Below, in pieces: positions 38,248-41,040 of a DNA stretch of 48,262 nt. The notes below the pieces were generated by a model. That model saw only the letters and a program-made list of their open reading frames with translations. It was not told where the DNA came from and did no database searches. The DNA is from Basidiobolus ranarum (Eukaryota): assembly GCA_040143965.1 (NCBI GenBank), contig JASJQH010000020.1, positions 1 through 48,262 of the forward strand, written 5' to 3'. How positions within the stretch are numbered: the first letter of the stretch is position 1; each line of letters opens with the position of its first letter. Made by a program: the position numbers and the translations under genes.

Positions 38248-41040
38248 ATGGCCACACAGCCAACTCCTATTCAAGAGGTTACCGAGGAGCATGTTAACTT
38301 CTTTAACGAATTCTTAGACAACGACGTATCCTTTTGTCCATTTTTTCTCCGAAATAATGCCTTTATTGCCTGTTACATTTATCCTTAACACTAACCTTTT
38401 AGTATGGTCACAATGAATATAAGAATACCATCATCAAAATGCTCACCATCGGTGAGACTAGATTGATAGTTAACATTGATCACTTGCGTGAGTATAATAG
38501 AGAATACACTGAAAGGTAAACTTATATTCCTACCATTCTTTCGAGCCAAACTTGTCTAACCTTCTATATCACTTTCAGACTTTTAGAAGCTCCAAGCGAA
38601 TATTTAATGGCCTTTGATCGCGCCTTAACTGCCGTCGTTAAAAAGGTTTCGGAGATGGAGAAACGAAACCAAATATTCGATGATGACGTTTATCACGTTG
38701 GGTTAACCGGTAGCTTTGGCGAATATCATGTTAACCCTAGAACACTTCGTGCTTCTCATCTTGGGAAGTTAGTATGCATTGAGGGAATTGTCACTCGTTG
38801 TAAGTATTACTCGTTTTACTATTTATGCTATCAGATATTTAATTCATGTTCACTTTAGGTTCCTTGGTTAGACCAAAAGTTGCCCGCAGTGTACATTATT
38901 GTGAATCTACTGGTATTTATTATGCTAAAGATTATCGTGATGCTACTATGCCTGGAGGTGAAGTACCTACTGGATCTACATATCCAACTACGGATGAAAA
39001 CGGCAATCCCTTGGTTACTGAGTTTGGATACTGTAAATATCGGGACCATCAAACTATTAGTATCCAGGAAATGCCTGAACGTGCGCCTGCTGGACAGCTT
39101 CCTCGTTCCGTTGATGTTATCTTAGATGACGACCTCGTAGATAAAGTCAAACCTGGTGATCGTGTTCAGATTGTGGGTACGTACCGCTCCATGGGCAGTG
39201 CTGGCCAAACCTCATCAACATTCAAGTAAGATTAGGAATTTTAAGTGTATTGTCTTGTCCCTTATCTCATCCGATATTCTATAGGACTCTTATATTGTCC
39301 AATAATGTGCATCTTTTGGGCACTAAAGTTGGTGGTGGTATTGCTAATCCTACCATTACCGACTCTGATATTCGTAATATCAACAAGATAGCAAAAAGAA
39401 AAGATGTCTTTGAGCTCCTTGGCCATTCTCTTGCACCGTCCATTTATGGCCATGAACATATTAAGCAGGCCGTGCTATTGCTCTTACTTGGAGGTATGGA
39501 GAAGAATCTTCCCAATGGTACACATATCAGAGGTGATATAAATATGATGATGGTTGGTGATCCATCTACTGCCAAATCCCAAATCTTGAGATTTGTTTTG
39601 AACATTGCTCCACTTGCTATTGCCACCACTGGTCGTGGTTCTTCTGGTGTAGGTCTTACTGCTGCTGTTACCACTGATAAAGAAACAGGTGAAAGAAGAC
39701 TGGAAGCTGGTGCCATGGTACTCGCCGACAGAGGAGTGGTGTGTATCGATGAGTTCGATAAAATGAGTGATGTAGATCGAGTTGCTATTCATGAAGTTAT
39801 GGAACAGCAAACTGTTACCATTTCCAAAGCTGGTATCCATACATCCTTAAATGCTCGTTGTAGTGTTATCGCAGCAGCTAATCCTGCATACAGTTCGGTT
39901 AGTATATCATATCTCTTATGACTTTGAAATCTTTTCCTCTAATACCATTTAATCTTGTAGTATGATGAAAATGCTCCTGTTCATGAGAATGTAAACCTAC
40001 CTGATTCTCTTCTCTCTCGTTTCGATTTGCTATTTATTGTTTTGGATACCAGCGAAGAATCACGTGACAGACAAATTGCAGATCACGTTCTGAGAATGCA
40101 TCGTTATGTCCCTAGAGGACTTGAGGAGGGAGCACCTATCAACGAGTCATTTGATATGAACTTGGATGTCATGACTGAAGAGGCTGAGCAAAGGGATACC
40201 CCTGTCTTCGAGAAATTCAACAAATTACTTCACGCTAGCACTAAGAAAAATAAGGAGAAAGAAGAGCTATTGTCTATTCCATTTGTGAAGAAATATATCT
40301 TCTACGCCAAGTCTAGAATCAAGCCTGTATTGACACCTCTTGCTTCTGACCATATTGTCAAAGTGTATTATGACTTGAGACAAACGCTGAAAAAAATGGA
40401 TGATCAGCAAGGAAAGGATGATAACGCTCGTACTTTACCTATCACTGCTCGTACTCTGGAAACTCTGATTCGTTTATCAACGGCCCACGCTAAAGCTCGT
40501 TTATCTTCTCGTGTTGAAGAGATTGATGCCAGAGTTGCTGAAGATTTACTACGATTTGCTATATTCCGAGGAAAGACGAACAAACCAACTGCTACAACAA
40601 CAGATGCTACTAAGAGAAGAAAGGTAGTCGAAGAGAGCCGACCCACCGTTTCCACCAGATCTCGTCGCAGCGCCAATGCTGCAACTAAAGAAACACCTTC
40701 AGTGACTATGGAATCTGTAGCCTCCTCATCGTCTCAACCTACCATGATGAAGCATTCTGGTGAACAGGAGAGCAGTAGCTCTATTCCTAGCATGCCGTCC
40801 ACCTCCAAATCAACCGGAGTTTCGTCAAGCAGACTTCAACTTTTCCGAGACCGTTTGAACACATGTATTGGAAATGGATGTTTCGAAGATCCTACTTCAT
40901 TCCTTATTGACGAATTATTACCTAATCTCAATGATGGATTAGATGAGCCATTTGAACAGGCAGAAGCGGAGTCGGCGCTTCACGAAATGGAGATCGAAAA
41001 TCAAGTCATGTATCGCGGAGGCTACATCTTGATGATTTAA
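38248..41040 (+). CDS. MCM3: DNA replication licensing factor MCM3, multi-exon
   Basis: [27 protein letters not shown], Walker [17 protein letters not shown], arginine finger SRFDL and [17 protein letters not shown]. Confidence 0.98.
38326..38402 (+). other. U12-type (minor spliceosome) GT-AG intron 1 of MCM3
   Basis: 5' site GTATCCTTTT; branch site TCCTTAAC at 38382-38389, 11 nt before the AG at 38401-38402; splicing gives in-frame EFLDND|YGHNEY. Confidence 0.85.

Follow-up and report, generated by a model that had tools for sequence, protein, structure and literature searches.

The window analysed here is a 48,262-nucleotide stretch of the Basidiobolus ranarum genome (assembly GCA_040143965.1, contig JASJQH010000020.1, positions 1 to 48,262), and the gene of interest is the MCM3 gene on its plus strand at 38248-41040. 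B. ranarum is a zoopagomycete and lies outside Dikarya. The gene comprises six coding exons that together encode an 823-aa protein (Table 1), a model identical to the deposited 823-aa protein (P0121), and the product carries the Pfam domains MCM_N, MCM_OB, MCM, MCM_lid and WH_MCM3_C. MCM3 proteins from Basidiobolus meristosporus share 91-98% identity with it (91% for P0004). When the exon-4 peptide was searched against the genome, seven matches were recovered, one at 100% and six at 28-50% identity; because these six correspond to other MCM genes, MCM3 is single-copy. A scan of the whole window against Rfam returned no matches. In the intergenic sequence upstream of MCM3, a short direct repeat at 37617-37692, recognized by eye, contains GATTTCTAAGAATTTGCTTTCTT twice, about 41 nt apart.

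Table 1. Features of the MCM3 gene and the snRNA genes located in the B. ranarum genome
Feature	Position	Strand	Remarks
MCM3 coding exon 1	38248..38325	+	26 codons, ending in ...FLDND; last bases GAC, hence C at -1
MCM3 later exons	38403-38515, 38579-38799, 38859-39225, 39285-39897, 39961-41040	+	
MCM3 intron 1	38326..38402	+	GT-AG, very probably U12-type; 77 nt, phase 0
U12-type 5' splice site of intron 1	38326..38335	+	GTATCCTTTT; the 5' end of the genome's own U11 pairs with 7 of its bases
U12-type branch site of intron 1	38379..38389	+	TTATCCTTAAC, with TCCTTAAC at 38382-38389; predicted branch A 38388, at -15
Second, U2-like motif of intron 1	38390..38395	+	ACTAAC; A 38394 at -9; probably incidental
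3' splice site of intron 1	38400..38402	+	TAG; no other AG from the branch site to exon 2
MCM3 introns 2-5		+	U2-type, 59-63 nt
U12 snRNA gene	L001:1501-1648 = G000:C7055:8882-9029	+	
Sole U6atac found	L002:1501-1634 = G000:C89:21836-21969	+	GUCGA in place of AAGGA

The initial annotation of this DNA had described the first intron of MCM3 as a textbook U12-type intron with a U2-like branch motif beside it, and our reanalysis recovered its coordinates, length, phase, donor, branch site, ACTAAC and TAG exactly where that annotation had placed them. The tail of the intron reads TTATCCTTAAC-ACTAAC-CTTTTAG, so that the second motif does follow directly on the U12-type branch as claimed. Between 38340 and 38402 the only AG is the acceptor itself, and the next one ends at 38423. 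Across the junction (residues 21-34) the residue count is the same in 73 of 119 homologues; as the gene model also coincides with P0121, the boundaries of intron 1 are independently fixed. Scored against the major-class consensus, its donor agrees at four of nine places and has C at +5, compared with six to seven of nine for the U2-type donors of MCM3 introns 2-5 (GTAAAC, GTAAGT, GTAAGA and GTTAGT). The accompanying statement that the other introns read in the window have U2-type donors is borne out for these four MCM3 introns; the window has five RTATCCTT sites, and at the remaining four no U12-type intron was called.

We set intron 1 against two genome-derived collections of candidate introns. 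The donor sample covered 100 of 307 GTATCCTTTT sites, 90 of 577 GTATCCTTTV sites and 30 of 659 ATATCCTTTT sites, together with 200 kb of bulk sequence and the window, and a site passed our U12 rule if a CCTTRAY-like branch lay 40-110 nt downstream and was accompanied by an acceptor and an open spliced frame. This rule was passed by 26 of 189 GTATCCTT donors and 6 of 69 ATATCCTT donors, as against 0.65% and 0.78% of 4000 random positions. Adding two sites from the donor list (L012 and L020) to the 26 gives 28 GT-AG candidates, while the U2 set consists of 151 candidates drawn from 1254 pairs of a strong donor and a YAG, filtered for an open spliced frame and an AT-rich intron; both sets are rule-based and not transcript-verified. 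A complete census was built separately on the pattern TATCCTTAAC-N6-15-YAG, which occurs at 57 sites genome-wide (one with too little flank); an RTATCCT donor stands upstream in 12 of the 57, in 11 of these at 50-64 nt. Bare motif counts are uninformative, with GTATCCTTTT occurring 307 times versus 614 for its reversed form and the branch-plus-acceptor pattern 57 times in either direction, and the signal resides only in the pairing of donor and branch.

Within these collections, the branch score of intron 1 is 12, joint best with two others among the 26 candidates, and of 4000 random positions just 0.025% combine an acceptor and an open spliced frame with a branch score that reaches 11. Its branch distance of 15 equals the median of the 28 own-genome candidates. 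Like all 28 of them it has no G at -1, a base found there in 62 of the 151 U2 candidates. Phase 0 is a minority state, with four certain and two ambiguous cases among the 26. The lack of an extended polypyrimidine tract had also been noted, correctly, but it is not diagnostic: the pyrimidine fraction from -15 to -4 is 0.67 in intron 1, 0.64 in the U12 candidates and 0.61 in the U2 candidates, and with values this alike the two classes cannot be told apart here by a missing long tract. For the congener B. meristosporus, the accessible text of Larue & Roy 2023 (PMC10639083) gives 249 minor introns (0.554%), which places its density near the top of those outside Amoebozoa, and the corresponding row of Table S4 in the available material of Olthof et al. 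2024 (PMC11347168) lists 237 minor, 140 minor-like and 70 hybrid introns; our candidate counts in B. ranarum fit these published figures. Two further loci from the survey merit mention: a putative U12 GT-AG intron lies within the P-loop of an ARF-like GTPase gene (L009, G000:C92), and at L359 (G000:C10) a GT-AG and an AT-AC U12 candidate fall within the same 3 kb.

The genome also encodes the snRNAs specific to this intron class. Covariance searches returned a single full-length match to each of U11 (84.6 bits; Rfam cut-off 39), U6atac (66.3 bits; cut-off 33), U12 (49.4 bits; E = 2.9e-7) and U4atac (46.6 bits; E = 2.1e-5), the last two falling slightly short of their cut-off of 53. U2 scored 124 bits, and the four minor-spliceosome profiles had no match in 14 control genomes. 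A genome without U11 and U12 had been named at the outset as grounds for rejecting the U12-type assignment; both are found, and that objection falls away. The 5' end of U11 is AAAAAGGG, the segment that forms seven pairs with the donor of intron 1; U12 pairs at nine positions of the first branch site (-9.8 kcal/mol) and at four of the second motif (-3.3 kcal/mol); and the U4atac and U6atac stems are complementary, at -23.4 and -10.0 kcal/mol. The branch-pairing region of U12 is GUAAGGAUAA, where the Rfam consensus has GGAAAA, and it agrees with the TTATCC of intron 1: a U in the RNA (GGAUAA) replaces the consensus A, and the intron carries the matching A. At that same place A is the commonest base in the candidate branch sites (13 of 28), a pattern that may reflect a compensatory shift between snRNA and branch sites. 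By eye, a TCCCA or CCCA motif lies about 55-75 nt upstream of the start of U11, U12, U4atac, U6atac and U2 (L001-L004 and L375); it is possibly a common snRNA promoter element.

Donor, branch, reading frame and pairing with the genome's own snRNAs thus agree on the class originally proposed, and on the strength of these sequence features we regard MCM3 intron 1 as very probably a U12-type GT-AG intron, strong and ordinary; the genome probably contains a couple of hundred of them. The steps of its removal that we propose rest on established minor-spliceosome biology. From the computed complementarity, U11 would bind donor positions +4 to +10 and U12 would bind TTATCCTTA(A)C, bulging A38388; U4atac, U6atac and U5 would then complete the minor spliceosome on the intron, and the TAG 15 nt downstream of the branch A would serve as the acceptor.

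One component departs from expectation. The sole U6atac recovered carries the box GUCGA, and the pairing of an AAGGA box with donor positions +4 to +8 is accordingly not found in this genome; with GUCGA, intron 1 can pair in Watson-Crick fashion only at donor positions +4 and +5. The stems formed with U4atac are intact all the same, and donors in the genome still read RTATCCTT. A pattern search for a second U6atac copy gave four matches in the genome, of which the three further ones had no Rfam hit; the variant is known from one assembly and one copy, so the box may stem from an error in sequencing, or a second gene may be missing from the assembly. We also looked for a hidden class of RTATCGA donors that would fit the variant RNA and rejected it, a branch-like motif lying downstream in 1 of 197 such sites, with no excess. 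In the accessible text of Davila Lopez et al. 2008 (PMC2396436), the one report that our literature search on this 'CC variant' returned, a '[GU]CCGA' form of U6atac is described in cnidarians, amoebozoans, a moss and oomycetes and is termed difficult to explain, whereas Rhizopus and Phycomyces have AAGGA. The GUCGA box of B. ranarum comes close to this variant, which the same text does not record in fungi. Since species with the CC variant have normal minor introns, going by that source, the mismatch does not count against intron 1. The B. ranarum variant would instead extend to fungi the unexplained 2008 observation of CC-type boxes unable to pair with the donor, and Basidiobolus, with its hundreds of minor introns, would provide a test ground for how donors are held without U6atac pairing.

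A further proposal of the initial annotation was that minor splicing may gate MCM3 output. Under such a regulated gate, retention of intron 1 followed by decay would limit MCM3 production across life stages. Retention does bring a stop into frame at codon 47, through a TAA at 38386-38388 within the branch site itself; because the 46-aa frame ends there, failure to splice would silence the message, and the 46-aa product would probably be degraded. Such silencing, however, follows from the retention of most introns, and the signals of intron 1 are among the strongest in the genome. A regulatory-switch model and an enrichment of minor introns in cell-cycle genes have been published for animals and plants, according to the available sections of PMC6865273, and the annotation had invoked enrichment in replication and cell-cycle genes on similar lines. 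That part stands for animals and plants, but in the accessible text of PMC10639083 the functional enrichment largely vanishes once an age-matched control is applied, making it largely a gene-age effect. The same text reports that proliferating Rhizophagus cells do not have higher minor splicing, retention being modestly higher there. A regulated gate is compatible with a U12-type intron, to which it would be an addition, but we consider it improbable.

A deposited 750-aa MCM3 protein designated 'variant 2' (P0003) lacks the N-terminal 73 residues and starts at residue 74, in the region of window position 38606. Retention of intron 1 alone would open a 785-aa frame from residue 39, the wrong start for this protein, and we rejected the variant as a sign of minor-intron retention. 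Retention of the U2-type intron 2, alone or together with intron 1, yields an ORF of exactly 750 aa, and for this reason the variant gives no sign of selective retention of the minor intron; it would fit such retention of intron 2, or else a shorter transcript.

The second motif was the basis for a different suggestion, namely that intron 1 is a dual-spliceosome or conversion intermediate in which the U12 signals are kept while ACTAAC, which we take to be a perfect U2/SF1-type core, admits SF1 and U2 and readies the intron for a switch to the major class. The genome's own U2 indeed pairs better with the second motif (-5.2 kcal/mol) than with the first site (-3.1 kcal/mol). Among the 28 candidates, a CTAAC stands after the U12 branch and before the AG in four, where tail shuffles give 0.77 (P = 0.007), or in 3 of 27 with the MCM3 intron set aside (P = 0.04); for the looser CTRAY the figures are 5 of 28 against 2.15 in tail shuffles (P = 0.058), and 4 of 27 once that intron is removed (P = 0.14). 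In 4 of the 23 genome-wide matches to CCTTAAC..CTAAC..YAG, a GTATCCTT donor precedes the pattern by 52-61 nt, and these four all lie on contigs C3-C80; elsewhere in that set, one site has a GTATCCTT donor 191 nt upstream and two have partial donors. The 23 occurrences of this pattern (CCTTAAC-N0-12-CTAAC-N1-8-YAG) are nonetheless fewer than the 42 of its reversed form, and in the census CTAAC appears in 2 of 12 introns, in 1 of 11 without the MCM3 intron and in none of the seven from later contigs. We therefore do not accept an enrichment of second branch motifs as established, the excess in the first sample being post hoc and unrepeated in the census. By a rough estimate, CTAAC may occur in about 6-8% of some 50-70 exact-CCTTAAC minor introns against 2-3% expected, a difference that is not significant once the ascertained MCM3 case is left out.

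The architecture of the intron likewise speaks against conversion. In the U2 candidates, the A of CTRAY lies at a median of -17 (40 motifs within 30 nt of the intron end), with 1 of 151 at -5 to -9, whereas the second A of intron 1 lies at -9; the second motifs of the U12 candidates place theirs at -6, -7, -8, -9 (MCM3) and -13. The donor has neither G at -1, AG at -2/-1 (the bases are AC) nor G at +5, and there is no MCM3 paralogue to show a converted copy. In the consulted portions of PMC11347168, conversion intermediates (the minor-like class) are characterized by A-2G-1 at the donor and by signals that have weakened. The same text has the predicted minor branch in use in 94% of minor introns and notes that a minor-type branch could by itself satisfy the loose yUnAy consensus; as the U12 branch of intron 1 fits yUnAy, a second motif is unneeded for conversion. 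That work, as far as its available text goes, also proposes that phase-0 minor introns convert more readily, a point in favour of conversion given the phase 0 of intron 1. With its donor intact, its second A too near the AG and the CTAAC excess unrepeated, intron 1 is very unlikely to be a conversion intermediate, and this part of the initial annotation is not upheld: its signals are top-scoring, the donor is preceded by A-2C-1, and the second A falls outside the local major-type range. The major spliceosome would find ACTAAC too near the AG and no usable donor, and the motif would be a by-product of the A/C/T-rich tail or of a short TAAC duplication.

Three other U12 candidates (L043, L065 and L244, on G000:C3, C80 and C17) have a perfect branch followed by CTAAC 6-7 nt before the AG. 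One could imagine that in a subset of the strongest Basidiobolus minor introns a second ACUAAC 6-9 nt before the AG is bound by SF1/STAR proteins or serves as an alternative branch, providing a fungus-specific minor-splicing control of a replication-licensing gene in a setting where U6atac (GUCGA) no longer fully pairs; we give this conjecture very little credence. Elsewhere in the window, at 42507-42567 on the plus strand, a 61-nt intron combines a GTAAGT major-type donor with a perfect U12-type branch, TATCCTTAAC. It lies in a predicted membrane protein gene (about 41804-42760) without a Pfam match, and CCTTAAC occurs in the last 35 nt of 1 of the 151 U2 candidates. From its sequence, this intron would make a likelier hybrid or converted intron than MCM3 intron 1 does. 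That intron 1 is itself major-class, its U12 likeness arising by chance and its removal falling to U1 and U2, is scarcely credible: the GT-AG ends, the U2-like motif and the existence 4 kb away of that U2-donor intron with a perfect U12-type branch would permit it, but a 10-nt U12 donor is joined here to an 11-nt U12 branch at typical spacing, all four minor snRNAs are present in the genome, and intron 1 matches U1 poorly.

Turning from mechanism to history, the first coding exon of human MCM3 presumably ends at the codon equivalent to the site of the Basidiobolus U12-type intron; if so, the site is old and its class differs between lineages. Searches of metagenomic data gave 567 confirmed stretches, of which we inspected the best 80, a set biased to intron-poor genes, transcripts and other MCMs; 34 of these 80 cover the MCM3 N-terminus, and none has RTATCCT there. 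Five ascomycete-like loci (L132, L133, L135, L137 and L140) have a phase-1 U2-type intron 2 nt upstream of the Basidiobolus site, in an indel-bearing region; this intron may have arisen independently or be a descendant that has slid. Another locus, L142, has introns 2 and 3 in common with Basidiobolus MCM3, its first intron being not clearly in the same place. No candidate emerged when short read-through fragments of MCM3 exons 1-2 were sought. Among annotated proteins, that of Powellomyces hirtus (P0150) misses three residues directly after FLDLD, and that of Syncephalis pseudoplumigaleata (P0129) has VRRHQ after FLDNE where two congeners have YTEGE, as if the annotation had read into an intron starting with GT and continuing with a non-U12 second codon. 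These deviations suggest mis-annotated introns at the intron 1 site in early-diverging fungi, as judged from the protein sequences.

Published tables offer little on this host gene. The eight supplementary files of human and mouse minor-intron genes available from PMC6717393 contain no hit for MCM3, with MCMBP present, and MCM3 is unnamed in the accessible main text of PMC10639083 and in the supplements obtained for PMC10639083 and PMC11347168, whose full databases may list the B. meristosporus orthologue. A literature search on MCM3 as a minor-intron host, partly judged by title, returned nothing relevant. As MCM3 is unlisted for human and mouse in those files, the site may hold a minor intron of old origin that has been lost or converted elsewhere, or one that this lineage has gained.

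The closest known system is B. meristosporus, whose minor introns belong to the same genus and the same class as MCM3 intron 1; at the protein level, the one level compared, the junction EFLDND/YGHNEY is identical in its MCM3 (P0004). MCM3 hereby joins the genes able to hold a minor intron, in a genus already known for hundreds, and a minor intron in Basidiobolus MCM3 is ordinary for the genus and, as found, of little consequence. The canonical U12-type GT-AG consensus of animals and plants is RTATCCTTT with the branch UCCUUAACU (PMC2846911), and intron 1 resembles the introns of those lineages in its donor and branch consensus, its short branch-acceptor distance and the absence of G at -1. 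It departs from them in its host gene, which is unlisted for human and mouse in the available files of PMC6717393, and in its phase 0, and the Basidiobolus branch consensus differs in having A two places before CC, matching the genome's own U12. Judged by the class descriptions rather than the matrices of PMC11347168, intron 1 would be classed as minor, and neither as minor-like nor as hybrid. With the minor-like and hybrid introns in the accessible part of that study it shares a motif readable by U2, but unlike them its signals are not degenerate, A-2G-1 is absent, and donor and branch are both of the minor type.
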